A stretch of 32,000 nucleotides of DNA, from positions 616,923 through 648,922 of the forward strand of contig JRWQ01000001.1 in NCBI GenBank assembly GCA_000775715.1, read 5' to 3'. Positions 7,593 through 29,891 of the stretch are shown here, piece after piece. A program made the translations under genes and the position numbers. Below the pieces are notes generated by a model. That model saw nothing but the letters and a program-made list of their open reading frames with translations. It was not told the DNA's origin and ran no database searches. Position 1 is the stretch's first letter. Each line of letters starts with the position of its first letter. This stretch comes from Vibrio tubiashii (lineage in GTDB: Bacteria > Pseudomonadota > Gammaproteobacteria > Enterobacterales > Vibrionaceae).

Positions 7593-7614
7593 CGAGCTCA
7601 ACTAAGGAGCCACT

Positions 7615-13180: not shown

Positions 13181-13942
13181 GTGACTCTATCTTTAAGACA
13201 AAAAGAGATTCTTAGCTATCTACAGCGCAGCAATGGTGTTCTATCCAGTGCTCTGCTGTCAGAGACATTCAACATATCGGTTCAGACCATTCGTAAGGAT
13301 ATGAATGATTTGAGCGATAAAGGGCTTGTTCGGCGCGTACATGGCGGGATTACTCTGCCAAGTGCTAATGATAACTTATCGTTTACCAATCGAGATTTGC
13401 TGAATGTCTCAGCTAAGCAGCGCATAGCGAAAAAAGTGGCTAGCGAAATCCCAGAGGGGTGCAGTATTTTCCTCGGTATAGGGACCACACCTAAGCATGT
13501 GGCGACGGCTCTGTTGGATCACCCAGGCTTAACCGTGGTCACTAACAATATAAATGCGGCTCTTACGCTAAGTCGAAATTCTAATATTTCTACTTATCTT
13601 GCGGGGGGAGCGGTCAGAATTTCAGATGAAGATACAGTTGGTGAGGCGACGACACGCTTTTATCGCCAATTTAATATCAAGATTGGTATCTTTGGTATTG
13701 GTGGTTTAGGAGACCAGGGGGAGCTTCTGGATTTTACTCCGGAAGAGGCTAATCTCACTAGAGCCATCATTGAGCAGAGCCGCCAGTGTTGGCTGATTGC
13801 TGATAAAACCAAACCGGGCAGATACGCGCCAGTTGTCAGCGCGCAGCTTTCCGAAATGGATCGTTTGTTTGTAGATGATGCAGTACCAGAGTTTCAATCA
13901 CTATGTAGAATCAATCAGGTAGAGCTGGTTGTCGCAGATTAA
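13181..13942 (+). CDS. DeoR-family regulator, GlpR-like, embedded in the ugp operon
   Basis: 253 aa, GTG start behind a TAAGGA RBS. Colinear with E. coli GlpR as remembered (S.QTIR.D.N.L...GL..R.HGG, IGTTP..VA.ALL.H..L.VVTNN.N.A, GGLG..G.LL.F). Confidence 0.8.
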   Translation: MTLSLRQKEILSYLQRSNGVLSSALLSETFNISVQTIRKDMNDLSDKGLVRRVHGGITLPSANDNLSFTNRDLLNVSAKQRIAKKVASEIPEGCSIFLGIGTTPKHVATALLDHPGLTVVTNNINAALTLSRNSNISTYLAGGAVRISDEDTVGEATTRFYRQFNIKIGIFGIGGLGDQGELLDFTPEEANLTRAIIEQSRQCWLIADKTKPGRYAPVVSAQLSEMDRLFVDDAVPEFQSLCRINQVELVVAD

Positions 13943-13951
13943 GGAATAATA

Positions 13952-14659
13952 ATGAGACCAATAATTGTCGGTCATAGAGGGGTGTCAGGCCACTATCCTG
14001 AGAACACAAAAGCCAGTATAGAGGCGGCGATTTCTATGGGTTTGGAATGGATAGAGGTCGATGTTCAGCCGACCAAAGATCGCCAGCTTGTGATCTGCCA
14101 TGATCATACGCTTGATAGATGCAGCAATGGTGAAGGGCGTGTCGACCAACACACGCTTGAAGAGTTAAAACAGCTTGATTTCGGTTCGTGGTTCTCTTCA
14201 GACTTTGCTAGCGAAGAGATCTTAACCCTAGGTGAGTTGTTTGCCATTGTTAAGGTAAGCAACATTAAGCTCAATCTAGAGATTAAGCTCGATACTGATT
14301 GTGCGGAAGAGGTGGTTACTAGCGTTGCGCAGTTGCTGAGTGAGCATCAGATAGATGATGAATCGATAATCCTTTCAAGCTTCAATCCGCAAGTGATGAG
14401 AGCCCTCGGAGAGCAGTGCAGTGAGTACAAGCTCGGAGTCATTTGCGACGAGCTAAGCAGTGATGTTCTCGCTCTGTTTAAAACCATCAATGCCTATAGC
14501 TGCCATTTGAACTATAAGCACATTACCGAAGCAGATCTCAACCAACTTGCAGAGATAGGCTGCGCTGTATGGTGCTTTACGGTTAATGAACCCGTGAGCT
14601 TCCCGTTGCTCGATAAAGTGGATGCGATCTTTAGTGATTATCCTGAGCGGTTTTTGTAG
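13952..14659 (+). CDS. ugpQ: Cytoplasmic glycerophosphodiester phosphodiesterase
   Basis: 235 aa. GDPD motifs HRG...PENT, E.DV, HD..LDR..NG, and the C-terminal VDAIFSDYP. AAGGA RBS. Confidence 0.85.
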   Translation: MRPIIVGHRGVSGHYPENTKASIEAAISMGLEWIEVDVQPTKDRQLVICHDHTLDRCSNGEGRVDQHTLEELKQLDFGSWFSSDFASEEILTLGELFAIVKVSNIKLNLEIKLDTDCAEEVVTSVAQLLSEHQIDDESIILSSFNPQVMRALGEQCSEYKLGVICDELSSDVLALFKTINAYSCHLNYKHITEADLNQLAEIGCAVWCFTVNEPVSFPLLDKVDAIFSDYPERFL

Positions 14660-14718
14660 AAGTAGTTCACAAAATAACCACAACAAGCTTTCTAACTAGT
14701 CTTCTTATTTGCTAATTT

Positions 14719-14738
14719 ATCTTCAAAATAATGAAGAT
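14719..14738. promoter_or_regulatory. Perfect 7-bp inverted repeat ATCTTCA-N6-TGAAGAT immediately upstream of yhfZ
   Basis: ATCTTCA 14719-14725 and TGAAGAT 14732-14738. It ends 8 nt before the ATG at 14747 and covers the only RBS-like GAAG. Confidence 0.35.
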
Positions 14739-14746
14739 TTAAATTT

Positions 14747-15643
14747 ATGTCAGTTCAATACATTAGCAAAGAAGGCGCAGCGATCATGAATATCGCTCAA
14801 TACCTAATGACCACAAACGAAGGTGATCGGTTAAGAACTATCGACTCGCTCTCAGAGGAGTTTGCGGTCTCGGTAGGCTTTATTCAAAAAGCGCTAACCA
14901 CCATAGAGCAGCGTGGTGCCGTAGTGTTATCAAAACAGGGACGCAACGGTACTTTTATCAGCCAGTTAAACTATCAAGAATTGGTTGCATGCGCTGGGAT
15001 CAGCAATGTCGTTTGTGCTATGCCACTTCCCTATACTCGTCATTATGAAGGGTTGGCAAGCGGTCTAAAAGCGCAACTTGGTGGTCTTCCGCTCTACTTT
15101 GCCCATATGCGCGGTGCAAGCGTACGTGCCGAATGTTTGAGAAATGGCACCTATGATGTGGCAATTATGTCGAAGTTGGCAGCGAAAGAGTTGGCATCTG
15201 GGTTGATTACGGCCATTGATTTGGGGCCAAGGACTTATTCTCACGAACACCGTTTAATCTTTCGTCAGGGAGAGTTTGAGCAAATCAAACGTGTCGGTGT
15301 CGATCCCGATTCTCCAGACCAAAAAATCCTCACTAGTCAGGCATTTGAAGACAAGGAAATCGAAATTGTCGAAATACACTACGGTGAAAGTTTAAATCAC
15401 CTGACCAATGGTGATATTGACGCAGTCGTTTGGCTTCCAGAAGCCATTGATATGGAGAAATATGGCTTAGCAGAGCAATCGCTTAGCCACCTACCAGCGT
15501 GCCAGCAAGCATCAGAAGCTGTTATGTTGGTCAATGGCAACGAGCAGCACATTACTACCTTGCTGCGTAAATTACTGAAACTTTCACCGCTACTGATCCA
15601 TCAACAAGCGGTGGTGAAAGGTGAACTCACACCAAGCTATTAA
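14747..15643 (+). CDS. yhfZ: YhfZ-family putative regulator (GntR-like winged HTH plus periplasmic-binding-protein-like C domain)
   Basis: 298 aa vs ~301 aa for E. coli YhfZ. Shared strings as remembered: I.KEG, TID.L......SVG..Q.AL.T.E..GA......GRNG, NVVCAMPLPYTR.YEGLASGLKAQ, HMRGA..R.ECL.NG.YD.A..S.LAA, HQQ.VV.GE..PSY end. Confidence 0.75.
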   Translation: MSVQYISKEGAAIMNIAQYLMTTNEGDRLRTIDSLSEEFAVSVGFIQKALTTIEQRGAVVLSKQGRNGTFISQLNYQELVACAGISNVVCAMPLPYTRHYEGLASGLKAQLGGLPLYFAHMRGASVRAECLRNGTYDVAIMSKLAAKELASGLITAIDLGPRTYSHEHRLIFRQGEFEQIKRVGVDPDSPDQKILTSQAFEDKEIEIVEIHYGESLNHLTNGDIDAVVWLPEAIDMEKYGLAEQSLSHLPACQQASEAVMLVNGNEQHITTLLRKLLKLSPLLIHQQAVVKGELTPSY

Positions 15644-15652
15644 AGGTGACAT

Positions 15653-16024
15653 ATGGAAGAGCGACTCGAGCTGCTGCTGCAAGCCAATGTGATTAGCTCA
15701 AAAGCGCAACAAGGCTGTTTACGAGCAATTGATATCATCGATAAGCAACTGCCTGTGCGGCACGACAATGAACAGTATCAAATGGCGATCACTCATTTGG
15801 CAAGAGCGGCGGATCGTATTTGGCAAAATGAAGCCGTAGTAGAGGGATTGGACCAAGACATTCTCGATGAGATTTCTGCTGATGAATGTTATTCCGACAC
15901 ACTCGCACTACATCAAGATGTATTGGGTGCGATGCAGCTTCACACTGTACCGAGTAGTGAGGAGGGGTTTATGCTAGCCAATATCTATTCATTGATTCAG
16001 ACCTCTCTTGAGGAGACAAAATGA
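15653..16024 (+). CDS. yhfY: YhfY-like small PRD-domain-like protein
   Basis: 123 aa, all-helical composition. MAITHLARAADRI resembles the His-containing helix of PRD domains. The position after yhfZ matches the E. coli cluster. The stop overlaps the php start (ATGA). Confidence 0.6.
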   Translation: MEERLELLLQANVISSKAQQGCLRAIDIIDKQLPVRHDNEQYQMAITHLARAADRIWQNEAVVEGLDQDILDEISADECYSDTLALHQDVLGAMQLHTVPSSEEGFMLANIYSLIQTSLEETK

Positions 16025-16899
16025 TGATTGATGCTACGGGTTATACCTACTGCCATGAGCACTTGCACATCGACTTATCACCACAAAAACACACTCTTGA
16101 TTGTCGATTGGATCAATACCAGCTGCTGTGTGAAGAGATGCGTGACGTTCAAAAACGTGGAGTACGTAACATCGTAGAAGTGACCAACTCTTTTATGGGA
16201 AGAAATCCTCAATTTATTGAAAATTTAATTAATGACACCGGTATCAACGTCTTGCTCTCTACTGGTTTCTATATTGAAGGATTCTTTCCCGCTGGTTTGT
16301 ACGACGCAAGTGTCGAGCAAATTGCCCAAGGAATGATCAATGAGATAGAAGTTGGTATTGATGGCTCTTGCTTAAAAGCAAGCGTGATTGGTGAAATTGG
16401 CAGTAGCGAAGATCAGTTTAGTCCAACCGAGCAAAAAGTCTTTCAAGCCGCAGCAATCGCCCATCTTGAAACGGGTCGTCCAATCTCAACTCACCAATCA
16501 ATGAGCACGATGGGCAGACAACAAATTGAACTACTAAAACAGTGCGGCGTTGAAATGGAAAACGTCACCATTGGGCACTGTGACCTGCGCGATAACTTTG
16601 AGCACATTGTTTGGATGCTCGATCAAGGCTGCTATGTGCAGTTCGACACCATTGGCAAAAACAGTTACTACCCAGACGAAAAACGTGCAGCCTCCCTCGC
16701 CGAGCTATGCCGACGTGGCTACGAAAAACAGATCATGCTCTCGATGGACATTACCCGTCGATCGCACTTGAAAGCCAACGGTGGCCTAGGTTTTAGCTAC
16801 CTAATTGACAAATTTGTGCCCTTGCTTAAACACCATGGGGTTAGTGATCACCAAATAAGCACCCTACTAAAAACCAACCCTGCTCGCTTATTTGGCTAG
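16021..16899 (+). CDS. php: Phosphotriesterase homology protein (amidohydrolase superfamily, binuclear metal centre)
   Basis: 292 aa, the same length as E. coli Php and colinear with it (TGYT..HEHLHIDLS, CRLDQY, RGVRN..E.TN..MGRN.QF, GRPISTH, GHCDL.DN, YVQFDTIGKNSYYPDEKR, MLSMDITRRSHLKANGG). All expected metal ligands appear present (HxH, E in GEIGSSE, H in STHQS, H in GHCD, D in SMDIT). Confidence 0.9.
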   Translation: MMIDATGYTYCHEHLHIDLSPQKHTLDCRLDQYQLLCEEMRDVQKRGVRNIVEVTNSFMGRNPQFIENLINDTGINVLLSTGFYIEGFFPAGLYDASVEQIAQGMINEIEVGIDGSCLKASVIGEIGSSEDQFSPTEQKVFQAAAIAHLETGRPISTHQSMSTMGRQQIELLKQCGVEMENVTIGHCDLRDNFEHIVWMLDQGCYVQFDTIGKNSYYPDEKRAASLAELCRRGYEKQIMLSMDITRRSHLKANGGLGFSYLIDKFVPLLKHHGVSDHQISTLLKTNPARLFG

Positions 16900-16933
16900 A
16901 GAGCGTCCGCGCTCAAAAATATAAGGATAGAAC

Positions 16934-17293
16934 ATGAAAAAAATCGCGATTGCTGGTTTGCAGCGTGAGCAAATCAAACAGCAAATTGAGACAACCATGC
17001 CTGACACCTTTGAGTGCCATATCCTCACCGATATGGATGCGGCGATGAAGGTTAAGTCAGGAGAAATTGACTACTTTATTGGCTGTTGCAATACCGGTGC
17101 TGGTGGCGCATTAGCTATGGCTATTGCCATTATTGGCTTTGGTCAAAGTTGCACTATTGCAAAGCCTTCAATTCAAGCAAAGCAAGATGAGGTTCAGCAG
17201 TTTATAGATAAAGGTTGTGTCGCGTTTGGTTTATCGATTGAACATGTCGAGCATGCCGTTCCGATGCTAACAAAACTACTCGCAGAGAAGTAA
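16934..17293 (+). CDS. yhfU: YhfU-like protein (DUF2620)
   Basis: 119 aa (E. coli YhfU ~117 aa). MKKIAIAG start and a conserved-looking GCCNTGAGGALAMA loop. Sits between php and yhfT as in E. coli. AAGGA RBS. Confidence 0.65.
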   Translation: MKKIAIAGLQREQIKQQIETTMPDTFECHILTDMDAAMKVKSGEIDYFIGCCNTGAGGALAMAIAIIGFGQSCTIAKPSIQAKQDEVQQFIDKGCVAFGLSIEHVEHAVPMLTKLLAEK

Positions 17294-17303
17294 GGAGTCC
17301 ATC

Positions 17304-18605
17304 ATGGATATTATGCACATTGGATTGGTTGCTGCACTCTGCGCCATGACCGCATTGATTGCCAACATGAGTGCCGCCGTCTTCCATGACGGCATCCGCC
17401 CTGTCTTGCCACAATTATTCGAAGGTAATATGACTCGCCGAGATGCGGGGTCTGTTGCGTTCGGTCTTTCTATTGGTTTCGTTGCTTCAGTGGGTATTTC
17501 ATTTACCTTATCGACTGGGCTACTTAACCCTTGGTTACTCTTTTTACCTACCGATATTCTTGGGGTTATGATTGGTAGCCGCATACTTGCGGCGCTCGCT
17601 GGTGGGTTATGGGGAGTGTTAGTTGTAACTTCTTTAGCCGGTGTGAATGCTGTTTTAACTGGCCTACCGATTGATGCTCTTGGCGCGCTTGGTGAACTCG
17701 GTACACCGGTAATGTCAGCCTTTGCACTCTTCCCTCTATTGGCCATTTTCTATCAGTTTGGCTGGAAAGCAGGGGCAATTGCAGCCGGTGTGATTTTGCT
17801 TTCTCGCTTAATGATCATCAAGTTCACAGGCATCTACCCAGAATCCATTCAAATCTTTGTCGGTATGCTAATGCTGGTTTTCTTTGCGGTTCGTAAAGAC
17901 TTAGCGGATCGTAAAGCAGGTATGCAGGCTCCAGATATGTCTGGCCTACACAGCATTTTCGAAGAACGAACCAAGCGTATTGTTAAACACTTACCTTTCT
18001 TGGCTGTGACAGGAGCACTGATTGCGGCGGTCTCCAACGGGGGTATTTTTGCCGGTTCCGAAGTTTCAATCTATTCACTTGCTGATGCACTAAAAATTGC
18101 TGATCCTGAAGCTCAAGATGCGGCCATGAAGCAAGTGGCGCTATCTGAGTTTATGCGTGGCTTAGGTTTTATTCCACTGATTGCTACTACAGCGCTCGCA
18201 ACCGGTGTTTATGGCGTGGTGGGCATGACCTTCGTGTTTGTCGTTGGCTATCTATCCCCCAATATGGCAGTCGCAGCAGCATTAGGTGCCGTCACTATTT
18301 GCCTAGAAGTTTATTTATTGCGTGGCATTGGCCGTTTCTTAGAACAGTTCCCTTCAATTCGGAACGCTTCAGACAATATTCGCAACTCAATGAACACGCT
18401 AATGGAGTTCGCACTTCTTATCGGTGGTGTTCTCGCTGTGATGAAAATGGGTTCCACCACAGGATTTACTATCTTTGCGATGTTGTTCTACCTCAACGAA
18501 GTTATGGGTCGCCCAGTATTGAAGATTGCAGCTCCAGCCGTAGCCGCCATTCTCACTGGTGTCATCTTAAACCTTCTTCACGTGGTTGGACTGTTCGCCA
18601 TCTAA
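17304..18605 (+). CDS. yhfT: YhfT-like polytopic inner-membrane protein (putative transporter)
   Basis: 433 aa (E. coli YhfT ~434 aa), highly hydrophobic and Gly/Ala-rich with roughly 10-12 predicted helices. AAGGAG RBS. Confidence 0.7.
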   Translation: MDIMHIGLVAALCAMTALIANMSAAVFHDGIRPVLPQLFEGNMTRRDAGSVAFGLSIGFVASVGISFTLSTGLLNPWLLFLPTDILGVMIGSRILAALAGGLWGVLVVTSLAGVNAVLTGLPIDALGALGELGTPVMSAFALFPLLAIFYQFGWKAGAIAAGVILLSRLMIIKFTGIYPESIQIFVGMLMLVFFAVRKDLADRKAGMQAPDMSGLHSIFEERTKRIVKHLPFLAVTGALIAAVSNGGIFAGSEVSIYSLADALKIADPEAQDAAMKQVALSEFMRGLGFIPLIATTALATGVYGVVGMTFVFVVGYLSPNMAVAAALGAVTICLEVYLLRGIGRFLEQFPSIRNASDNIRNSMNTLMEFALLIGGVLAVMKMGSTTGFTIFAMLFYLNEVMGRPVLKIAAPAVAAILTGVILNLLHVVGLFAI

Positions 18606-18726
18606 AAATAAATAGCCGAGCTGATCACTGGCTTAAATTACTCAATTAGATCAATTGGTATCGTTATTTAACCAGCGCTACAGAGATGTTAGTGCCGGAT
18701 CAGCTCATTCCTAAAAAGGGGAGAAA

Positions 18727-19908
18727 ATGTTTTTAAAAGCCTTAGAAAAGCAAAATCCCGACTTAGTACAAGCCGCGTTAAGCTTATTTAATCAAGGTTT
18801 ATTGATGCCGGATACAACCGTCATTGATGTAGACCAGTTTATTAACAACGCCCAAAATATACGCCAACAGGCAGATAGATATGGACTGAAATTATTTGCC
18901 ATGACCAAGCAAGTAGGTCGTAATCCTTTACTCGCTAAAATCCTAATCGAGCAATGTCAATTTGATGGAATTGTCTGTGTCGACTTTAAAGAGGCGCGAT
19001 TAATGGCAAAGTATGGGTTGCCAGTTGCGAATGTAGGTCATTTAGTCCAGCCTCCCACTAATATGATTGACAGCCTGATTAGAGAAATTCAGCCTCAGGT
19101 GATTACGGTTTACAGTCTCGATAAAGCCAAACAGATCTCAAATGCTGCACAGAAGTATCAGCGTCAACAAGGCCTGCTGCTGAAGTTCTATCACGAGCGC
19201 GATCAACTTTATACGAACCAAGAATCTGGTTTTCCAATCGAAGAGCTGGATGAGATTGTCGCAGAAATTGCAGCGATGCCAAACGTGCATATTGAGGGCG
19301 TCACCCATTTCCCTTGTTTTCTATATGATAAAAAAAGTCACAAAACCCAGCCTACGGCAAACTTAACTACCCTTATTGAGGCAAAGCAGAGGTTAGAGCA
19401 ACTGGGCGTGGAGTGCCGTCAAGTCAATGCGCCTTCAGCAACTTGTATTGAAACCTTACCGATACTAGCAGAGTTTGGTTGTACGCATGGTGAGCCTGGG
19501 CACGCATTGACTGGCACAGTGCCTGCCAATGCCACCACTATCCAAAGCGAAAAAATCGCGATGCTATACCTTAGTGAGGTGTCTCACCATTATGGTTCAG
19601 ACAGTTACTGCTTTGCTGGTGGTTACTATCGTAGGGGGAGTCTAGAGAACTGTTTGGTATTCGATAACGACAAGCGCTATCTCACCTGTATCTACAATGA
19701 TGATCGCGATAGCATCGATTATCATCTGCGTATATCTGGATTGTTTCCTATCGGCTCACCAGTAATCATGGCGTATCGCACTCAAGTCTTTGTCACCAGA
19801 AGTGATGTTGCTTTAGTCTCCGGAATTAGCAGTGGCAAGCCACATCTTATGGCCGTTTATGACGCATTGGGAAATCCACTTAACACCAGTGAGGTGCATC
19901 ATGGCTAG
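18727..19908 (+). CDS. yhfX: YhfX-like fold-type III PLP enzyme (alanine-racemase N-terminal domain family)
   Basis: 393 aa (E. coli YhfX ~387 aa). The N-terminal barrel segment has a candidate PLP lysine in LFAMTKQVGRNP. GGGGAG RBS. The 3' end overlaps the yhfW start by 8 nt. Confidence 0.7.
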   Translation: MFLKALEKQNPDLVQAALSLFNQGLLMPDTTVIDVDQFINNAQNIRQQADRYGLKLFAMTKQVGRNPLLAKILIEQCQFDGIVCVDFKEARLMAKYGLPVANVGHLVQPPTNMIDSLIREIQPQVITVYSLDKAKQISNAAQKYQRQQGLLLKFYHERDQLYTNQESGFPIEELDEIVAEIAAMPNVHIEGVTHFPCFLYDKKSHKTQPTANLTTLIEAKQRLEQLGVECRQVNAPSATCIETLPILAEFGCTHGEPGHALTGTVPANATTIQSEKIAMLYLSEVSHHYGSDSYCFAGGYYRRGSLENCLVFDNDKRYLTCIYNDDRDSIDYHLRISGLFPIGSPVIMAYRTQVFVTRSDVALVSGISSGKPHLMAVYDALGNPLNTSEVHHG

Positions 19909-21145
19909 ATTTATTGTCGTGGTTCTTGATGGCTTTGGCGTAGGTGAAATGCCGGATGTGCCTCAAGTGAGACCACAAGACTGTGGTGCAAACACTGCCA
20001 ACAAATTGCTGTCTCACTTTGCTCTCAAACGACTACCCACTCTGGAAAAATTGGGGCTACAGAATGTGGTCGGTAACTCTGAGTCACTGATGAAGCCCAA
20101 CCCAGATGCCAATACAGGTTCAGCTTGGCTTGCTCATGAAGGTGGAGACACGTTTATGGGACACCAAGAAATCATGGGCACAAAGCCAAAGCCACCATTA
20201 GTTCAACCCTTTCAACAAGCGCTGGCAAAGATTGAGTCAGCAGTGATCGAGACAGGTTATCACGTTGAAAGAATTACCCAGCAAGGGTTGTCATTGCTGC
20301 AAATTGAACACGGAGTCATTGTCGGCGATAACTTAGAGGCAGATTTAGGACAAGTCTATAACTTAACATGCAATTTCAATGTAGTGCCGTTTGAAAAACT
20401 GCTTGAGATTGCCAGTGTCGTGCGGGCCAATAACCCAGTAAGTCGCAATATCGCTTTTGGTGGCAATATTGAGTCAGAGAACGGCATACCTAGTATGCAA
20501 CGCGTCTATAACGCTATTGAAGTAAAAAACGACCACCAAGGGCAACCCACTTATATTGGTATCAACGCACCAGATAGCGGCGCGTATGAGTGTGGTTTTC
20601 AAGTGGCTCACTTAGGCTTCGGTGTGGATGCACTGACTCAGGCACCTTATCTGCTCCATCAACAAGGTATTAAAACCTGGTTATATGGCAAAGTCGCAGA
20701 CATCGTGCAAAATCCTAATGGTCAATCCTACTTGTCGGTTGTGGATACCGATGCAGTATTTCGCTTGCTAACCCAAGATTTAGCCACGCAAACGCAAGGG
20801 TTCTTCTGCGCCAATGTACAAGAAACGGACCTTTCTGGGCACCAGCAAGATCCCAAACAGTATTGGCGTGTTCTTGAACGAGCAGATAGAGGGTTGAGCC
20901 AAGTGATCGAAAAAATGGCCGAGCAAGACGTGCTCATCGTTATGGCTGATCATGGTAATGATCCGTTTATTGGCCACACCAAACATACAAGGGAGAAAGT
21001 ACCACTCCTGGCGATGAAAAAAGGTCGTCAAGCCCTCGCTCTCGGTGAGCGTGAAACATTGTCAGATGTAGGAGCGACGGTCTGCAACTTTTTTGCCGCA
21101 CAGGCACCAGAAAACGGATCACCTATTACCAGTTTGTTAAACTAG
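19901..21145 (+). CDS. yhfW: YhfW-like phosphomutase (phosphopentomutase/alkaline-phosphatase superfamily)
   Basis: Start taken at ATG 19901 (MARFIVVVLDGFGVGEMPD, GTGAGG RBS) rather than 19832. Metal and nucleophile motifs resemble DeoB: VLDGFG.G, GGDTFMGHQEIMG, ETDLSGHQQD, MADHGNDP..GHT.HTREKVPLL. Confidence 0.75.
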   Translation: MARFIVVVLDGFGVGEMPDVPQVRPQDCGANTANKLLSHFALKRLPTLEKLGLQNVVGNSESLMKPNPDANTGSAWLAHEGGDTFMGHQEIMGTKPKPPLVQPFQQALAKIESAVIETGYHVERITQQGLSLLQIEHGVIVGDNLEADLGQVYNLTCNFNVVPFEKLLEIASVVRANNPVSRNIAFGGNIESENGIPSMQRVYNAIEVKNDHQGQPTYIGINAPDSGAYECGFQVAHLGFGVDALTQAPYLLHQQGIKTWLYGKVADIVQNPNGQSYLSVVDTDAVFRLLTQDLATQTQGFFCANVQETDLSGHQQDPKQYWRVLERADRGLSQVIEKMAEQDVLIVMADHGNDPFIGHTKHTREKVPLLAMKKGRQALALGERETLSDVGATVCNFFAAQAPENGSPITSLLN

Positions 21146-21200
21146 TTTTAAGCCTAAACAGAGTTAATTCAAGATATTATGATTCTTGTTTAGTTGTTAT

Positions 21201-21240
21201 AGCCTCCTAGTCTCCCCCCTGCGCTAAGAGGCTTTTCTTT
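21201..21240 (+). terminator. Probable rho-independent terminator of the yhf cluster
   Basis: AGCCTCCTAG (21201-21210) pairs with CTAAGAGGCT (21224-21233) at 9 of 10 positions, 13-nt loop, followed by TTTCTTT. Confidence 0.5.
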
Positions 21241-21308
21241 ACGCTGCGCTATCGCGACTCGATAAAGTCGATGCAATCTTTAATGATTATCTATAACGGT
21301 TTGCATAA
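21241..21308 (+). pseudogene. Remnant of a glycerophosphodiester phosphodiesterase (ugpQ-like) 3' end
   Basis: 21258-21308 aligns without gaps to the ugpQ 3' end at 14609-14659 with 40/51 identities (31/34 over the first 34 nt). It translates in frame as LDKVDAIFNDYL* against LDKVDAIFSDYPERFL*. There is no upstream ORF, because a TAA lies in frame at 21225-21227. Confidence 0.7.
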
Positions 21309-21410
21309 GGTAAAAGCGATAGAGTTGCTCTTCTTAGCTATCAACCGAGTAACACTGAAAGCAAAAGTGTTATAAATCAGTCGGCAATTGAGGAGGAAGG
21401 GCTAAAGACA

Positions 21411-21935
21411 TTAGTCCTGATTTAAAGCTTGTAGCTGGCTATTGTTATTGTTCGATTGATACAAGCGATATATGGTCAGTAAGTTGGTGATGATAAAGGT
21501 ACTCTCGACCAATGAACCCCCGATCGACCCAAGCCAAATATTGTGGCTCACCCAACAAAAAGAATTGAACAGAATTAAGCTGCGAAGTGTGATACCTCGT
21601 TTGGAAAAGAGTGCCCAAGTGGCGACGGACGATCCTATCACCGTGAGGAGCTCAAAAAAGTGAGTGATGTTTGGTAGGGTCATTAGCCACATTAGCGCAA
21701 TGAAGAACCACATCACTTTGCGTGATTGGGTTTTGATTGAGGCGAAGCTGCGAATGCCATTAATGATCACGCCAATGGCAGCGACGGTTGCACCCATTAG
21801 GGTAAAGTGAATCCCCATGATGAAACAAAACGCCATCATCTGATAGCGAAAGCGCATATCATCTTTCTGCCAGAATGCCATCACGCCAACCATAAACGCG
21901 ATGCCACCAACGCCTTGTGCTAACCAGTTTTCCAT
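21411..21935 (-). CDS. ygjV: YgjV-like inner membrane protein
   Basis: 174 aa with about 5-6 TM segments. The N-terminus WLAQGVG.IAF..G...F...D.R.F..Q resembles E. coli YgjV, which also neighbours hexuronate genes (uxaCA). Confidence 0.55.
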   Translation of the reverse strand: MENWLAQGVGGIAFMVGVMAFWQKDDMRFRYQMMAFCFIMGIHFTLMGATVAAIGVIINGIRSFASIKTQSRKVMWFFIALMWLMTLPNITHFFELLTVIGSSVATWALFSKRGITLRSLILFNSFCWVSHNIWLGSIGGSLVESTFIITNLLTIYRLYQSNNNNSQLQALNQD

Positions 21936-21982
21936 TTTTCCCCTAGAGTGTTGTTTTTTGAGCCAAGCTTTGAACGAATCAA

Positions 21983-22000
21983 CCCTCCATATAGGGAGGG
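21983..22000 (-). terminator. Possible terminator of the kdgK-eda transcript
   Basis: On the minus strand, CCCTCC-CTATAT-GGAGGG followed by TTGATTCGTT, 63 nt after the eda stop. The stem is short and the U-tract imperfect. Confidence 0.35.
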
Positions 22001-22062
22001 CTGGGCACCATATCTAATTCGCTAAGGGATTACCCAAGAGCCTTGAGGCTACTTACGAATCA

Positions 22063-22692
22063 TTACTCATTTACAAGCGCTACTGCTTCGCGAGTTAGGC
22101 GTGCAAGCTCTTCCCAGTTGCCTGCTTCGATAAGTTTCTTGTCTACCATCCACGTACCACCACATGCCAATACACGCGGGATAGCTAGATAATCTTTGAT
22201 GTTCGCAGGGTTAATGCCACCAGTAGGCATTAGTTCGATGTTAGTGTATGGCGCGAGCAGAGATTTCACCATGTTGATGCCGCCAGAAGCTTCGGCGGGG
22301 AAGAACTTCAAGGTGGTTAATCCCATTTCCAGTGCGGCTTCAACTGTGCTTGGGTTGTTTACACCCGGTACGATATCAATTCCGATCGCTTGGCACGCTT
22401 TAACGGTATTTGGGTTAAAGCCAGGCGAAACGATAAAGGTTGCGCCTGCTTCTTTTGCTGCAAGTGCTTGCTCGCGGTTCAACACCGTTCCTGCGCCAAT
22501 CAGCATGTCTGGTTGGCTTTCACGCAGTAGACGAATCGCTTCTACAGCGGCTGCGGAACGGAAGGTGATCTCAGCCGCTGGGAGTCCGTTTTCTGCCAGT
22601 ACTTTACCCAGTGGGACAATGTCTTCTGCTTTATCTATGGCGATAACAGGGATGACTTTCAGAGCTTTCAATTGTTCTTTAATACTAGACAT
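22063..22692 (-). CDS. eda: 2-dehydro-3-deoxy-6-phosphogluconate (KDPG) / KHG aldolase
   Basis: 209 aa. PV....... E.....LV.GG......EIT.R, GAGTV, F.VSPG, and the Schiff-base region LKFFPAE..GG typical of Eda. AAGGAA RBS. Confidence 0.9.
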   Translation of the reverse strand: MSSIKEQLKALKVIPVIAIDKAEDIVPLGKVLAENGLPAAEITFRSAAAVEAIRLLRESQPDMLIGAGTVLNREQALAAKEAGATFIVSPGFNPNTVKACQAIGIDIVPGVNNPSTVEAALEMGLTTLKFFPAEASGGINMVKSLLAPYTNIELMPTGGINPANIKDYLAIPRVLACGGTWMVDKKLIEAGNWEELARLTREAVALVNE

Positions 22693-22701
22693 GAGTGTTC
22701 C

Positions 22702-23679
22702 TTAAACGACGTCAAGCGCCGGTTGTGTGAATGCTTTGGGAATGATGGCACCGCGATGTTGAATCACAGCACCTGCCAGTGCGTTACCTCTTTGACATGA
22801 GGTCGCGAGATCGGCGCCAGCAAGGTATGCCGATAAAAAGCCACCATTGAATGAGTCGCCCGCCGATGTGGTATCCACCACTTGAGCGACAGGTTGGGTT
22901 GGCACGGCTTGTGGAGCCAAAGCCGCGCTCGAATCCTGATTTGTTGAGTTTTGAACTAAGCAGCCATCTGAACCAAGTTTGACGATGCATTTGCCCACGC
23001 CAAGAGAGGTAAGGCGTTCAATGGTTTGCTCTGGAGTTTCGTCGCCCCAGATCAATTGCTCATCATCAAAAGTCACCAAGGCGACGTCCGTCAGTTGATA
23101 AATGGCTTGGTAAACGTTTTTGACGGTTTGATTATCGTCTTGAGGCCATAACGCTGGGCGGAAGTTACTATCAAATGCGATTTCAACGCCTTGGGCTTTA
23201 AGCTCGACCAATAGGTTGAGCAGTGAAATTCGGTCTTCTTCTGGCAAGATGGCTAGAGAGATACCGCTGAGAAACACCGCATCCACATGAGTTAATGCTT
23301 GCTTAACCAGACCAAAGTTAGGGTGTTGAAGTAAGTGACGTGCTGCTGATTGATTGCGCCAATATAGAAACGTACGCTCGCCTTGATCATCAAGCTGAAT
23401 CAAGTACAAGCCCGGCGTGCGAGTTTCATCGCGTAGCACCAAATCTGTTGAGACGCCTTCGTCTTCCCAGCGAGTTAGCATGCCCGAGCTGATTGGGTCA
23501 TTGCCAAGCGCCGTAACGTAAGAGACTTTAACTTCATCAGGTTTGCTATTGGCTTCGCAGCCGCGGCTCAAATAAACCGCAGCGTTGAGCGTATCCCCAC
23601 CAAATGTTTGATGCATTGAGCCGAACGGTTTTCCATTTAGCTCAATCATACATTCACCAATAATGGCGATGTGCTTCAT
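22702..23679 (-). CDS. kdgK: 2-dehydro-3-deoxygluconokinase (PfkB/ribokinase family)
   Basis: 325 aa. GGDTLN near the N-terminus and the C-terminal DTTSAGDSFNGGF PfkB signature. Located between uxaC and eda. Confidence 0.85.
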   Translation of the reverse strand: MKHIAIIGECMIELNGKPFGSMHQTFGGDTLNAAVYLSRGCEANSKPDEVKVSYVTALGNDPISSGMLTRWEDEGVSTDLVLRDETRTPGLYLIQLDDQGERTFLYWRNQSAARHLLQHPNFGLVKQALTHVDAVFLSGISLAILPEEDRISLLNLLVELKAQGVEIAFDSNFRPALWPQDDNQTVKNVYQAIYQLTDVALVTFDDEQLIWGDETPEQTIERLTSLGVGKCIVKLGSDGCLVQNSTNQDSSAALAPQAVPTQPVAQVVDTTSAGDSFNGGFLSAYLAGADLATSCQRGNALAGAVIQHRGAIIPKAFTQPALDVV

Positions 23680-23682
23680 TGG

Positions 23683-25095
23683 TTACGCCCTCTCTTCAAA
23701 GTAGCGTTTTGCGTTACCAAAACAGATGTCTTCAACCATAGGACCAAGCAACGATAGGTCATTTGGAATTTCGCCGTTCTCTGCCCAACGACCGACCATG
23801 TCACACAAGATGCGGCGGAAGTATTCGTGACGGGTGTAAGACAAGAAGCTGCGCGAGTCCGTTAGCATACCGACGAATTGGCTGAGCAAACCAAGTTGAG
23901 AAAGTTGCTCCATTTGGCGTTGCATGCCGTCTTTCTGGTCGTTGAACCACCAACCTGAACCAAACTGCACTTTGCCCGCGATACCGCCACCTTGGAAGTT
24001 TCCAATCATGGTCGCCATCATTTCGTTATCACGAGGGTTCAAACAGTAAAGAATGGTGCGAGGCAGTTCGTTGGTTTGGTCCATTTCATCCAACAGGTGT
24101 GCCAGTTCAAAGGCAAATGGGCGATCGCCAATCGAGTCAAAGCCAGCATCGGCACCTAACAGTTGGAACATGCGTGTGCTGTTGTTGCGCTGCGCGCCAA
24201 TATGAAGCTGCATGACCCAGCCCAATTTCGCGTAGCGTTTGCCGAGCCAAACTTGAACTGCGGTAGAGAACTGCGCACATTCAAGATCTGACAATACTTC
24301 GCCATTCAAACGACGGGTCAGCAACGCATCTAAATCAGCCTCGCTTGGGATCGGTGCGTAACGGACGATCTCAATGCCGTGGTCTGCTGCACGACATCCA
24401 TGTGCATCGAAGTGTGCCAAACGTTTATCAAGCGCACTCAATAAATCATCAAAGCGGCGAATTTCAATGTCTGCTATTTCACCCAATTTGTGGATGTAAT
24501 CCGCAAACACGTCCAATTCAATCTTGAACGCTTTATCCGGACGCCAGCTCGGCAGCACTTTAACGTTAAATGTGTCGTCTTCTGCGATCGCTTTGTGGTG
24601 CTCTAGTGAATCGATAGGATCATCGGTTGTGCCCGCCATGACGACGTTCATTTGCTGCATGATGCCACGAGCCGTAAATTCAGGTGTCGCCAGTAGCTCA
24701 TTACATTGATGCCAAATTTGGTCAGCGGTGTCTGGGCTAAACAGCGTATTGGTAAGGCCGAATGGGCGACGCAGTTCTAAGTGCGTCCAGTGGTAAAGCG
24801 GGTTGCCCAAGGTTTGAGGAACCGTCTTCGCCCACGCCATGTATTTGTCGTAATCGCTCGCGTCACCCGTAATCAAATTCTCTTCAATGCCTGCCGAGCG
24901 CATGCCACGCCATTTGTAGTGATCGCCTTCAAGCCAGATTTGACTCAAGTTATCGAACTGACGATTTTGCGCCACTTCCGCTGGGTTTAGATGGCAGTGG
25001 TAATCATAAATTGGCTGGTGGAACGCATGCTCATGGTACAAGCGACATGCAGTTTCGTTTGAGAGTAAAAAGTCTTCACACAAGAAATTCTTCAT
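23683..25095 (-). CDS. uxaC: Glucuronate (uronate) isomerase
   Basis: 470 aa, the same length as E. coli UxaC. F..EDFLL....A..LYH......PI.DYHCHL start and the WWFND region. AGGAG RBS. Confidence 0.92.
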
Positions 25096-25107
25096 CGTTA
25101 ACTCCTA

Positions 25108-26571
25108 TTACAGCGCAGCTACAGTGGCACGAGCGCCGTGATCAATCAGCGATTGGTAAGCGCTGCTCACCGCATCAATCACTTGTGGGTTTTGCCCAAG
25201 CTCTGCAGGGAAGATGGCTTCAACTGCGAGCAACGCAGGTACCACAGAAACGTTCAAGCCGTGTTGGTCGCAAATCTGACGCAGTGTCTCTGCCATTGGA
25301 TCGCGAACATCAATGTCGTTGCCTTGCTCGTCCACGCCAGATACGTAGCGCATCCAACCTGCAATTGCTGTTGCCAACCATGAGAAGTTAGAACCTTGAG
25401 CAAGATGGAATCGCAAGCTGCCATCCATACGTTGTGGGATCTTCTGGCTGCCATCCATCGCGATTTGCCAGGTTTTGTGTTTCAAGCTTGGGTTAGTGAA
25501 GCGCTCGATAAGCAGCTTAGCGTAGCCTTCTAAATCGGTGCCTTCTGGCATGGTCAGCGAAGGAGCTTGCGCTTGCATCATCATGTCGAATGCCGCTTTG
25601 CGGTAGCCTTCGTCTGTCATGGTGTCAGAGATGTGCGCGTAACCGCCAAGGTAGCCTAGGTAGGCTAGGAACGAGTGGCTACCATTTAGCATGCGCAGTT
25701 TCATTTCTTCGTAAGGCACAACGTCGGCAACAAACTCTGCGCCAGCCACGCTCCAATCCGGGCGACCTGCCACGAAGTTATCCTCGATAACCCATTGGCG
25801 GAAAGGTTCACAAGCGATACCACATGGATCTTCACAGCCAAGTAGCTCAGCGATTTCGGTCAGCGTCTCTTCGGTTGCTGCTGGCACAATGCGGTCAACC
25901 ATGGTGCAAGGGAAGGTAACATTGGTTTCAATCCAGTCGCGTAATTCTGGATCGAGTAGTTGAGCGAACTCAAGTACCGCTGCTTTTGCTACGTGACCGT
26001 TCTCTTGCACGTTGTCGCAAGACATCACGGTAAATGGCGTCAGACCGCGCTCACGGCGCATTTTTAGTGCTTGCACGATGTAACCCAATGCCGATTTTGG
26101 CTCCGTTGGGTTGGCAAGGTCAGCAATGACTAGCGGGTTGTTTTTATCAAGCGTGCCCGTTGCTGGGTCGGCGCAGTAGCCTTTCTCGGTAATCGTCATT
26201 GAAACGATCGCCACTTGTGGCTCTGTCATTTTTTCTAACACCGCTGGAATGCTGTCGAGGCTTGGGTGGAGTGATTCGGTCACTGAGCCAATCACTTTTA
26301 CCTCAGTCGATTCTGCGCCTTTCTCTGCCACTGTATAGAGGTGATCTTGTGCGCGCAGCGATTGAATTAAGTCTTCACCACCAAATAGGTTGATTTCGCA
26401 AATGCCCCAATTCGAGCCTGTTTTACTTAGCATTTCATTGGTGAATAGAGCTTGGTGCGCTCGGTGGAATGCACCGAAACCAAGGTGAACAATACGGCTT
26501 GTAAGTGTTGAACGGTCGTAGTCCGGTAGCAGAGCGTGGTCATTTAGAGTGGAATTCGAAATAGTCTTCAT
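25108..26571 (-). CDS. uxuB: Fructuronate reductase (D-mannonate oxidoreductase)
   Basis: 487 aa, colinear with E. coli UxuB as remembered (RIVHLG.GAFHRAHQA, LYTVAEKGAESTE.K.IGS, TEKGYCAD, FTVMSCDNV.ENGHVAK, NVTFPCTMVDRIVPAAT, MLNGSHSFLAYLGYLGGY, TWQIAMDGSQK.PQR). It is not UxaB-like. Confidence 0.9.
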   Translation of the reverse strand: MKTISNSTLNDHALLPDYDRSTLTSRIVHLGFGAFHRAHQALFTNEMLSKTGSNWGICEINLFGGEDLIQSLRAQDHLYTVAEKGAESTEVKVIGSVTESLHPSLDSIPAVLEKMTEPQVAIVSMTITEKGYCADPATGTLDKNNPLVIADLANPTEPKSALGYIVQALKMRRERGLTPFTVMSCDNVQENGHVAKAAVLEFAQLLDPELRDWIETNVTFPCTMVDRIVPAATEETLTEIAELLGCEDPCGIACEPFRQWVIEDNFVAGRPDWSVAGAEFVADVVPYEEMKLRMLNGSHSFLAYLGYLGGYAHISDTMTDEGYRKAAFDMMMQAQAPSLTMPEGTDLEGYAKLLIERFTNPSLKHKTWQIAMDGSQKIPQRMDGSLRFHLAQGSNFSWLATAIAGWMRYVSGVDEQGNDIDVRDPMAETLRQICDQHGLNVSVVPALLAVEAIFPAELGQNPQVIDAVSSAYQSLIDHGARATVAAL

Positions 26572-26652
26572 TTTGGTATCCCTTTTCCCGCAAGCGTACC
26601 TGCGGGATGGTCTGTTTTAATCATTCGTAATCTAGAGCTTATAACCTAGCGT

Positions 26653-27954
26653 TTAGTAGCCAAGTACAAGGTTAGGCAAGAAAAGGCTTAGCTGAGGAAT
26701 AAAGGTCACTGCCATTAGTGCTGCAATCAGTGCAACATAGAATGGCAGCAGAGGCTTAATCACTTTGTCGATGGCAACGTTTGCCACAGAACAACCAATG
26801 AACAACGCACTACCTACTGGTGGGGTACAGATACCGATAGCTAAGTTGAAGGTCATCATGATGCCAAAGTGTACCGGGTCGATACCCATATCCAGTGCGA
26901 TTGGCAGGAAGATAGGCGTGAAGATCAGTACCGCTGGCGTCATATCCATGAAGATGCCGACAATCAGCAGAATGATGTTGATGATGAGTAGAATCATCAG
27001 TGGGTTATCTGAGATTGCTAATAAGCCATCCGCGATCATGTAAGGAATATCGGCGTTCGCCATTGCCCAAGACATGCCCATGGAAGCGCCTACGAGCAGT
27101 AAGACGATAGAAGTGGTGACCGCAGACTCTAAGATGATTTTAGGTAGATCGCGCCATTTTACTTCTCGGTAAATCAGTACCGCGAGGGTGAAGGTGTACA
27201 CTACCGCGATAGCAGAGGCCTCTGTCGCCGTAAAAATACCGCCAATGATGCCACCCATGATGATCACAATCAGTGCCAGAGACGGCGCTGCTTTTATGAA
27301 GGTATCCCAGATCAAGGCGATTGAAGGGCGTGCTGCTACTGGGTAACCACGGCGTTTTGCAATGATACCTGCTACCACCATAATACTGAGCCCCATGAGT
27401 AAGCCAGGAATGTAACCGGCCAAGAACAGAGCCGCGATAGACGTGCCACCAGAGACCAACGAAAATACGATAAGCGTGTTGCTTGGTGGGATTAACAAGC
27501 CTGAAGGGCAGGATGTGATGTTCACAGCAGCAGAGAAATTATCATCGTAGCCATCTTTCTTTTGCAGAGGAGACATGGTGCCACCCACAGCCGCCGCAGA
27601 TGCTACTGCTGAGCCAGAAATTGATCCAAACATCATGTTAGCCATCACATTTACGTGAGCTAGCGACCCTGGGAGACGACCACCTAACACCTTCGCGAAG
27701 TTTATCAATCGTAGTGCGATACCACCTTGGTTCATAATATTACCCGCCAAGATAAAGAACGGGATTGCTAAAAGTGCGAAGTTGTCTAGGCCTGCAGCCA
27801 TGCGCTGAGCCACTACTGCGATTGCAGGCTCGAGCGGGAGCCCCATTAAAATAGTCGCCAGAGAAGACAGACCGATAGCAAATGAGACCGGAACACCAAT
27901 CGCAAGTAAGAGTGCGAAGCTACCGAATAATGTGAGAATTAGTTGCCATTCCAT
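26653..27954 (-). CDS. TRAP transporter large permease subunit (DctM family)
   Basis: 433 aa, about 12 TM segments, DctM-type pattern (AIPFFILAG, MFG.ISGSA.A). Immediately downstream of the small subunit. Confidence 0.9.
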   Translation of the reverse strand: MEWQLILTLFGSFALLLAIGVPVSFAIGLSSLATILMGLPLEPAIAVVAQRMAAGLDNFALLAIPFFILAGNIMNQGGIALRLINFAKVLGGRLPGSLAHVNVMANMMFGSISGSAVASAAAVGGTMSPLQKKDGYDDNFSAAVNITSCPSGLLIPPSNTLIVFSLVSGGTSIAALFLAGYIPGLLMGLSIMVVAGIIAKRRGYPVAARPSIALIWDTFIKAAPSLALIVIIMGGIIGGIFTATEASAIAVVYTFTLAVLIYREVKWRDLPKIILESAVTTSIVLLLVGASMGMSWAMANADIPYMIADGLLAISDNPLMILLIINIILLIVGIFMDMTPAVLIFTPIFLPIALDMGIDPVHFGIMMTFNLAIGICTPPVGSALFIGCSVANVAIDKVIKPLLPFYVALIAALMAVTFIPQLSLFLPNLVLGY

Positions 27955-27968
27955 TTTGGAACCCTCTA

Positions 27969-28481
27969 TTAATCAAGTTGTGTGTCGGTGAGTAGATCTT
28001 CACCAGACATCAATTGTTTTATGCGGTCAAAAGCGAAAACTGCAGAGTAGAAAATCATCAGTGCGCCACTAATTGGAAGGCAGAAATAGATGTAGCCCAT
28101 CTCTAACCCAAGTGCCGGCGTTAGTTGACCCATGGAGAGTGTTTTGAGCGCTAGCTGGGTACCGCCATGCACCAGAACCACATACGAAAACAGAGCAATA
28201 GAGAATTGAATTACAATTTCATTCACCAGCTTTTTCTTACCTGTGAGTTTCATCGTCAAAAGGTCAATCGCGAGGTGACGTTTAAGACCAGTGGTGTAAG
28301 CGGCACCGATAAGGGCTACCCACATAAAGAGATAGCGAGCCAATTCATCTGTGACGGTGCTTGGTTTACCCAGTACGTAGCGTGAAAGCACCTGCCAAAC
28401 CACGCAGAAGACAAGAAAGGTCGAAAGAGAGACAGTGAATGCTGCCAACCCCCTGTTGATATACGTGACCAATTTATTCAT
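27969..28481 (-). CDS. TRAP transporter small permease subunit (DctQ family)
   Basis: 4-TM protein. Start set at the second ATG (28481, MNKLVTYINRG), which has an AAGGAA RBS 6 nt upstream. ATG 28487 is also possible. The 28571 start in the ORF track adds a non-membrane leader that runs across operator sites. Confidence 0.8.
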   Translation of the reverse strand: MNKLVTYINRGLAAFTVSLSTFLVFCVVWQVLSRYVLGKPSTVTDELARYLFMWVALIGAAYTTGLKRHLAIDLLTMKLTGKKKLVNEIVIQFSIALFSYVVLVHGGTQLALKTLSMGQLTPALGLEMGYIYFCLPISGALMIFYSAVFAFDRIKQLMSGEDLLTDTQLD

Positions 28482-28520
28482 TTTCATTTCCTTAAAGTAA
28501 ATACGCTGACTGTATAACAA

Positions 28521-28532
28521 TTGGTTTACCAA
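28521..28532. promoter_or_regulatory. ExuR/UxuR-type operator candidate TTGGTTTACCAA
   Basis: Palindrome TTGGT-NN-ACCAA with AA/T flanks (AATTGGTTTACCAAT), about 40 nt upstream of the dctQ start. It matches the GntR/FadR-type hexuronate operator core as I remember it (AAATTGGTATACCAATTT). Confidence 0.6.
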
Positions 28533-28634
28533 TGTAGCGAGCGTATTTGAGTAGGGTCTCAAATCATGCATGTTGTTTTGATGGGATTATAATTTAGGTG
28601 AGTTGGTTGTCACGTGAGCAGGCTCACAAATGAA

Positions 28635-28646
28635 TTGGTTGACCAA
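28635..28646. promoter_or_regulatory. ExuR/UxuR-type operator candidate TTGGTTGACCAA
   Basis: Perfect half-sites with AA/T flanks (AATTGGTTGACCAAT), in the centre of the divergent dctQ/dctP intergenic region. Confidence 0.6.
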
Positions 28647-28668
28647 TATATGGGTTAATAGTGTGATT

Positions 28669-28680
28669 TTGGTCAATCAA
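28669..28680. promoter_or_regulatory. Degenerate ExuR/UxuR-type operator candidate TTGGTCAATCAA
   Basis: The left half is perfect and the right half is ATCAA instead of ACCAA. Its centre is 34 bp from the centre of the previous site. Confidence 0.4.
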
Positions 28681-28770
28681 TTTGGTTTTTTGTTTTGACG
28701 ATGGGTTTTTTGATCGCCAATAATGACCTCGAAACAAGAAATACTATGAAAACTTAAACTACCCTACATA

Positions 28771-28782
28771 TTGGACAACCAA
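28771..28782. promoter_or_regulatory. ExuR/UxuR-type operator candidate TTGGACAACCAA
   Basis: 11/12 match to the TTGGT-NN-ACCAA pattern with a T flank (TTGGACAACCAAT). It ends 19 nt upstream of the dctP ATG at 28801. Confidence 0.5.
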
Positions 28783-28800
28783 TCCATGGAGAATAAAACA

Positions 28801-29784: not shown

Positions 29785-29844
29785 TTCTTAAACTATTTAG
29801 TGAGAAATAGTCGAAAACAAGGTGTTACCACATTCTGGTACATA

Positions 29845-29856: not shown

Positions 29857-29891
29857 TTTCTATTGGTCGTTATGATGGCGTGAGAAGTTAG

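Follow-up and report, generated by a model that had tools for sequence, protein, structure and literature searches.

The window, by which we mean the whole stretch of 32,000 nucleotides of Vibrio tubiashii DNA that was analysed, carries in its left 14 kb genes for a glycyl-radical enzyme with its activase, for DeoR, patatin, CdaR and GntP proteins and for glycerate kinase, followed by a ugp-like ABC transporter operon of which ugpQ is the last gene. The UgpQ protein is identical to V. tubiashii KGY14412. A cassette of yhf genes lies immediately 3' of ugpQ, and its last product, YhfW, is identical to KGY14418. To the right of the cassette a second, degenerate copy of the ugpQ end is met, and beyond it a block of hexuronate-utilisation genes, in which ygjV and eda are read from the opposite strand. 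The features are as follows.

13952-14659, plus strand: ugpQ, glycerophosphodiester phosphodiesterase, 235 aa, intact (NCBIfam and Pfam GDPD matches)
14604-14653, plus strand: left, functional copy of the ugpQ tail (alignment; the clear repeat is 14609-14653)
14648-14653, plus strand: left junction, 6-nt microhomology CG(G/A)TTT (BLAST homology to V. panuliri begins at 14648)
14654-21243, plus strand: yhf cassette, very probably imported (92.3% nucleotide identity to V. panuliri; family assignments)
14660-14746, plus strand: leader of 87 nt between ugpQ and yhfZ
14747-15643, plus strand: yhfZ (YhfZ_full equivalog, 359 bits)
15653-16024, plus strand: yhfY (family assignment)
16021-16899, plus strand: php (PRK09875, score 451.4, under the cut-off of 486)
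16934-17293, plus strand: yhfU (DUF2620)
17304-18605, plus strand: yhfT (YhfT Pfam family)
18727-19908, plus strand: yhfX (YhfX-like Pfam family)
19901-21145, plus strand: yhfW (PRK12383, phosphopentomutase-like)
21201-21240, plus strand: terminator-like hairpin of yhfW, AGCCTCCTAG...CTAAGAGGCT and then TTTTCTTT (fold; conserved in V. panuliri and V. scophthalmi)
21244-21252, no strand: filler of about 9 nt and uncertain origin, GCTGCGCTA (a variant in contig L030; no convincing homology to ugpQ or V. panuliri)
21253-21302, plus strand: right copy, the decayed remains of some 50 nt from the ugpQ end (reads LDKVDAIFNDYL*; no ORF upstream)
21303-21329, plus strand: continuation of the relic, homologous to the sequence that follows ugpQ in L001 and L002 (blastn and gapped alignment)
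21330-21396, no strand: spacer of 67 nt that matches no fetched locus
21397-31720, minus strand with genes on both strands: hexuronate-utilisation block with ygjV, eda, a PfkB kinase, uxaC, a mannitol-dehydrogenase family gene, TRAP DctMQP, GntR and uxuA (89-92% nucleotide identity to L022-L027)

The yhf cassette and its donor-type context

An earlier reading of the sequence alone (the sequence-only reading) had placed an 87-nt leader, seven yhf genes and a terminator, about 6.6 kb in all, between the two copies of the ugpQ end, and this content is confirmed. The cassette resembles the yhf cluster of Escherichia coli in its gene families (YhfZ, Php, YhfW, YhfT, DUF2620 and YhfX-like). It is unlike that cluster, the order of which in E. 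coli K-12 is yhfZ-yhfY-yhfX-yhfW-php-yhfU-yhfT-yhfS, in having php-yhfU-yhfT before yhfX-yhfW and in the absence of yhfS. A literature search on yhfW, yhfX and yhfZ found no functional study. With regard to the last gene, the mechanically called ORF of yhfW has a GTG start, 437 aa and an overlap with yhfX (19832-19908); to judge from homologues in the databases and from the NCBIfam alignment, translation really begins at the ATG at 19901, which gives 414 aa and an overlap of 8 nt with the yhfX stop.

The hairpin downstream of yhfW folds at -12.8 kcal/mol, which with a z-score of -0.74 is unexceptional; it is called a terminator because of its position, its T-run and its conservation. Simple promoter and terminator scans of both junctions gave nothing that exceeded shuffled sequence, the hairpin having been missed by the terminator scan because its loop is long, and an Rfam scan of 14000-22000 returned zero matches. 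Base composition does not distinguish the cassette, the GC content being 0.43-0.47 as against 0.46-0.49 in the ugp operon.

What does set the cassette apart is its occurrence elsewhere. Window 14648-21159 corresponds to V. panuliri L018 4749-11259 at 92.3% nucleotide identity (the same is seen in L020 and L021), and the terminator region can be aligned with V. panuliri as far as about 21243 when indels are allowed. The V. panuliri cassette has GDSL lipase and LysR genes on its left and glyoxalase, MerR, MOSC and NqrM genes on its right, and there is no ugpQ. V. scophthalmi is colinear with V. panuliri through the cassette and on either side of it, with about 72% nucleotide identity. This shared synteny marks the site between LysR and MerR/MOSC as the native one and the site at ugpQ as derived. 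The inserted DNA is thus found in a different, native context in two other species. The claim of the sequence-only reading that the interval between the copies is imported cargo is supported by this comparison, since the same block, 92% identical, stands in an unrelated context in V. panuliri.

The four-fold-site divergence between the cassette of the window and that of V. panuliri is 0.25. At the 5' end of yhfZ the window has 95% identity to V. panuliri and 79% to V. scophthalmi, and by this comparison the donor would have been far closer to V. panuliri than V. scophthalmi is. No flanking direct repeat was found around the V. panuliri cassette, the best local match being 8-13 nt, and the cassette copies of V. 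panuliri and V. scophthalmi carry nothing ugpQ-like beyond CGATTT. A megablast search of 13900-22000 against plasmids gave no match. It is worth adding that some V. panuliri strains have a segment of 734 nt with an AraC-family gene about 25 nt past the yhfW terminator (L020 11368-12096 as compared with L018 11363-11367), which makes the right edge of the cassette a point of insertion or deletion in the native context too.

The end of ugpQ and its displaced copy

Among genomes taken at one per species, UgpQ proteins of 88-91% identity accompanied by a ugp operon occur only in Vibrio sp. M260118 (L001) and in a MAG (L002); more distant ugp and UgpQ copies are present in V. hannami and Vibrio sp. 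TH_r3. Protein look-ups supplied four further loci: L016, a Logan contig without yhf genes; L017, a metagenome contig that runs from ugpQ to yhfZ; and L028 and L030, metagenome contigs with the yhf cassette and its right side, which come from independent samples. The cassette is missing 3' of ugpQ in L001, L002 and L016.

The close UgpQ proteins have the C-terminal sequence ...LDKVDAIFSDYPERF (...DAIFSDYPERF) in common and diverge after it. The window protein ends in ERFL*, that of L017 in ERFM*, that of L001 in ERFAQG*, that of L002 in ERFADVESSA*, and those of L016 and V. hannami in ERF*. The nucleotide alignments are alike in all lineages up to ...CG(G/A)TT(T/C) and different beyond. In the window the last residue of UgpQ, L, and the TAG stop at 14657-14659 (TTG TAG) come from cassette-derived sequence. 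Over 13952-14653 the window ugpQ has 90-93% amino-acid identity to those of L016, L001 and L017, with 97-100% for the adjacent ugp genes; its divergence climbs toward the 3' end, and the alleles are mosaic, the 5' half of the L017 gene being 98-99% identical to L016. In V. hannami (L005 10695-10754) the last ugpQ codons and the stop stand in tandem, as a 10-nt unit, AGCGATTCTA, repeated six times with 100% matches. This array sits exactly at CGATT(C/T), the spot of the cassette junction in the window.

The sequence-only reading had aligned 21258-21308 with the last 51 nt of ugpQ (14609-14659). Its counts (40 of 51 identities without gaps, and 31 of the first 34 nt), its reading frames and the in-frame TAA at 21225-21227 upstream of the right copy were all reproduced. 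The left copy translates as LDKVDAIFSDYPERFL* and the right copy as LDKVDAIFNDYL*RFA*, and no ORF precedes the latter. A repeat search over 10 kb returned the pair as a direct repeat of 45 nt, 14609-14653 and 21258-21302, with 84% identity (38/45) and a spacing of 6649, both the top-ranking and the longest repeat in the searched region. The next-best match to the 45-mer elsewhere in the 32-kb window has 24 identities out of 45. Since 200 shuffles of the 32 kb reached a maximum of 28/45 and a mean of 24.9, as against the 38/45 observed, the match to the ugpQ tail is not due to chance.

The right copy is, moreover, closer to the ugpQ of L016 and L017 than to that of the window. Over 21253-21302 it shares 44 of 50 positions with the L016 gene (88% nucleotide identity), 43 with L017 and 40 with the tail of the window's ugpQ. 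Its left edge lies at about 21253, that is, 5 nt beyond the repeat, where it reads CGCGA and L016 and L017 read CGCTA; a further leftward extension to about -66 of ugpQ, with some 10 matches in 16 and a gap, is unconvincing. To the right of the repeat the homology goes on. After CGGTTT the relic reads GCATAAGGTAAAAGC..AGTTGCT, for which the counterpart in L001 is GCTCAAGGTTAAAGC..AGTTGCT, and some 27 nt past the repeat match what follows ugpQ in L001 and L002, two loci without yhf. By blastn, window 21257-21317 is 82% identical over 61 nt to L001 2253-2313 and L002 5994-6054, and a gapped alignment with L001 (to 2327) carries the homology to window 21329. Positions 21303-21329 correspond to the extension after ERF, AQG* in L001 and ADVESSA* in L002, and to the next few bases.

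The best nucleotide match of the fragment is therefore to ugpQ orthologues, in frame and with a colinear run into the downstream sequence of L001 and L002. Together these two properties identify it as the old end of ugpQ and not of another GDPD paralogue, and they bear out the proposal that the second copy is a ugpQ tail, displaced and no longer coding, as opposed to a paralogue such as glpQ, which had been named as the alternative. As far as sequence comparison can tell, 21253-21329 is a non-functional former 3' end of ugpQ with the bases that once followed it. The relic has about 5-6 private changes in 50 nt (about 10-12%), namely AGT to AAT, CCWGAG to CTATAA, CGCTA to CGCGA and possibly GCG to GCA. 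At the protein level the decay is seen as a change of Ser to Asn and as the stop created by CCTGAG to CTATAA. For annotation purposes, the relic should not be called a gene.

The sequence to the right of the relic has a history of its own. The hexuronate block is colinear with loci of Harveyi-clade vibrios (L022-L027), and the homology stops 14 nt past the ygjV stop; in the Harveyi-clade loci a GH3 gene follows ygjV. The block is separately bounded and does not belong to the yhf insertion, and from 21397-31720, and on to the window end, it looks like a second block, separately acquired or exchanged, that adjoins the yhf cassette. For 21330-21396 and for the 9-nt filler, a search of all loci and the window gave chance-level matches only, and a 22-mer of the right flank had no match in a metagenome scan. 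In L028 and L030, which are 98% identical to the window, only the first 10 nt of the relic remain after the cassette, and a 9.6-kb deletion of hexuronate genes follows: window position 21267 is fused to 30885 (L028 6690-6960, L030 1715-1975), leaving a 248-nt internal piece of uxuA (30885-31132). After this piece both contigs are 98% identical to the region following ugpQ in L001. L001 itself retains about 11-17 nt of that uxuA end, and then the same right flank follows. Judging by the uxuA remnants in L028, L030 and L001, the common ancestor of these genomes apparently possessed the hexuronate block, which was deleted in some descendants.

It had been predicted that ugpQ of relatives without yhf genes would run into the sequence from 21258 onward and then into ygjV-eda. 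The first part holds for 21258-21329 in L001 and L002; the second does not, as ygjV-eda follows in no relative. The stretch 3' of ugpQ is a mosaic hotspot. A separate indel is found further to the left, where L016, otherwise 87-95% identical, lacks the GntP-family permease gene (6240-7592, in 6065-7600) that the window has between the genes for the CdaR-type regulator and the glycerate kinase.

Junctions and the origin of the arrangement

At the left junction, homology to V. panuliri and V. scophthalmi starts at 14648 and ugpQ-type sequence ends at 14653, so the two overlap by 6 nt. This shared stretch, CG(G/A)TTT, is common to the last two conserved ugpQ codons (R-F) and to the intergenic sequence upstream of yhfZ in the donor type; it reads CGATTT in L001 (an empty-site ugpQ), in the cassette-bearing L028 and in V. 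panuliri, and CGTTTT in V. scophthalmi. The pattern after the junction, CG-TTTTT-T-GAA---G-TCACA, is kept in the intergenic sequence of V. panuliri and V. scophthalmi, and its conservation at the native LysR-yhfZ intergenic region indicates that the bases after the left junction are donor sequence. The first 12 nt of the cassette (14654-14665, TTGTAGAAGTAG), which supply the new final residue and the stop codon of ugpQ, differ at 5 of 12 positions from V. panuliri, TTATCGAAACGG, in a cassette that is otherwise 92% identical. The right junction consists of the end of the T-run at about 21243, the filler of about 9 nt and the relic, with a possible microhomology of at most 3-4 nt. The left junction is shared by L017 and L028, and the right one by L028 and L030; as these are independent samples, the structure is real and shared by a population.

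We consider it very likely that the fragment is an insertion scar which, with the intact ugpQ end, brackets imported cargo. The full account, which combines the relic, a V. panuliri-like donor and an illegitimate, microhomology-guided insertion with target duplication, is in our judgement probable, with less assurance than the scar itself. The duplication, the identity of the relic, the boundaries of the cargo, its donor-type context and the junction overlap are direct observations on which the account builds. Under the account, a promoter-to-terminator piece of about 6.6 kb with yhfZ-yhfY-php-yhfU-yhfT-yhfX-yhfW would have left a V. panuliri-like donor. Its left end would have joined the last conserved ugpQ codons via the 6-nt CGATTT, and its right end would have joined ugpQ 45-50 nt further upstream, with the consequence that 45-50 nt of ugpQ, now a target duplication, came to flank the insert left and right. 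Such a duplication could result from two staggered illegitimate joins or from a switch of template during replication. The left copy, being the end of a functional ugpQ, would have remained under selection, with its new residue and stop taken from the cassette, and the right copy would have decayed neutrally; neither an integrase nor a transposase would be needed at any step. We infer both the enzymology (illegitimate recombination or a template switch) and the origin in a single event.

Several observations speak against this account. The exact empty site with the present right flank is seen in no relative, and L001, L002 and L016 each have different DNA a few tens of bases past ugpQ. Illegitimate integration is not usually described as producing a target duplication of 45-50 nt. 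The right junction has little microhomology and the unexplained filler, and the first bases of the cassette are unusually different from V. panuliri. In addition, some features of the ugpQ alleles would agree with homologous recombination having brought in the 3' half of ugpQ, and the arrangement may not have arisen in one step.

These allele features are the strength of the main alternative, the route put forward by the sequence-only reading, in which a donor already carrying ugpQ-yhf would have recombined with the recipient in ugp or ugpQ, its right end joining illegitimately 45-50 nt before the end of the recipient ugpQ; the resident tail would have been left stranded and the two copies would be different alleles. 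The window is 96-100% identical to L016 over the ugp operon, and the identity goes from 94% down to 81% across the 3' half of ugpQ; the four-fold-site divergence from L016 is 0.22 in ugpQ, two to four times the 0.05-0.13 of the upstream ugp genes. The relic, furthermore, has the L016 state at all four sites that separate the L016 tail from the left tail of the window. L017 has the same junction on an L016-like ugpQ allele, from which it follows that ugpQ alleles and the cassette have been reassorted among cassette-bearing genomes. Joins of 3-10 bp in homology-facilitated illegitimate recombination (HFIR) are also documented in transformable bacteria (PMC6382021, citing de Vries & Wackernagel 2002 and Prudhomme et al. 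2002). However, this alternative still needs a prior illegitimate event to make the ugpQ-cassette junction, which joins donor-native intergenic sequence through a 6-nt overlap. The allele argument is weakened by L028, the closest cassette-bearing relative, the left tail of which already has the relic's, supposedly resident, state at three of the four sites, and neutral decay by itself explains the number of differences: the private changes of the relic amount to about half of the 0.25 measured between the cassettes, which is what neutral decay should give per lineage, so the copies need not have differed as alleles at the origin. The view of the sequence-only reading that the copies are diverged orthologues, as opposed to a fresh duplication, is accordingly not required. 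Its suggestion of homologous recombination through ugp fares better in part; it does not account for the first event, with its illegitimate 6-nt left junction, and it may explain a later spread, given that the divergence of ugpQ rises toward the junction. As the origin of the arrangement we hold the homology-anchored course to be rather unlikely, and as a later step, by which the cassette spread among ugpQ alleles, it is possible, as L017 also suggests.

A site-specific integration would account for some of the same features in another way. The 45-nt tail would be an attachment site, a circle with a ugpQ-like attP would have been inserted by an integrase that has been lost or whose gene lies elsewhere, and the copies would be attL and attR. 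Direct repeats derived from the target (14604-14653 and 21253-21302) do flank the insert at a gene 3' end, and the gene is restored; three downstream arrangements, those of L016, of L001/L002 and of the yhf type, diverge right after the same ugpQ codon, the spot at which V. hannami has its sixfold repeat. The cassette copies at other sites tell a different story, those of V. panuliri and V. scophthalmi being without flanking repeats and without ugpQ-like sequence beyond the hexanucleotide, and the cassette, an operon of ordinary type, shows colinearity with its flanks in these two species. The repeat stops where the coding constraint stops, which is enough to explain the common point of divergence. 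No integrase or excisionase is present within 14 kb on the left and 10 kb on the right, and no recombinase or transposase was found among the ORFs of 34-21145 or in the right-hand block, all of which are metabolic, transport or regulatory. ARAGORN detected neither a tRNA nor a tmRNA anywhere in the window. The gene assignments and the tRNA scan thus uphold the earlier statement that integrase, transposase and tRNA are absent. An inverted repeat pairing the cassette ends was not found either, and the duplication, at 45-50 nt, compares with 2-14 bp for transposons. We regard site-specific integration as very improbable. The last candidate, that the fragment is a remnant of a deleted GDPD paralogue such as glpQ, or a chance match, unrelated to the yhf insertion, can draw on nothing except the shortness of the match. 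It is ruled out by the shuffles, by the 88% identity to the L016 ugpQ, by the colinear continuation into the post-ugpQ sequence of L001 and L002, and by the inner edges of the repeat, which coincide with the boundaries of the V. panuliri homology; its likelihood is practically nil.

The preferred reading, an illegitimate insertion with target duplication, can be compared with three known processes. In HFIR, foreign DNA joins at 3-10 bp (de Vries & Wackernagel 2002; Prudhomme et al. 2002; Meier & Wackernagel 2003; all via PMC6382021). The present case is like it in the integration without mobility genes, in a stretch shared by donor and recipient that at the left junction has 6 nt and falls within this range, and in a possible anchor in the adjacent ugp genes. 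It is unlike it in having a target duplication of 45-50 nt instead of a deletion and little or no microhomology at the right junction, and in that the event is here read back from sequence only.

With the islands that tyrosine integrases insert at gene 3' ends (tRNA, tmRNA and protein-coding) the cassette shares an imperfect repeat of the 3' end that brackets the insert and a target that is left intact. It differs from them in the lack of an integrase, in a donor copy without att-like sequence, and in a cargo made up of one native operon complete with promoter region and terminator; the two copies of the repeat, too, differ here by decay and not by a core and arm structure. Template switching of the MMBIR/FoSTeS kind has mostly been described in eukaryotic and E. 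coli rearrangements within one genome. The likeness to it lies in a microhomology-bounded insertion together with a short duplication of the local sequence where copying leaves and comes back, and the difference is that the copied template would here be foreign DNA.

Meaning for operon transfer among vibrios

The locus offers a resolved example of a complete catabolic operon moving between Vibrio lineages without the machinery of a mobile element. The donor context, the empty site of the recipient, both junctions and the decayed target duplication can be seen together, and the case is of use to work on illegitimate recombination in vibrios with natural competence. A bolder idea is that the last codons of ugpQ (...CGN TTY) are a recurrent, sequence-directed hotspot at which promoter-to-terminator operons are swapped without mobility functions of their own. 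It is hinted at by the three unrelated arrangements that begin from the same nucleotide, by the tandem repeats of V. hannami and by the 45-50 nt duplication, and it would, if true, imply a trans-acting or host-encoded mechanism; we give it little credence. As scars of horizontal operon transfer go, the arrangement is ordinary: a fresh case of a known process that leaves the general picture unchanged.
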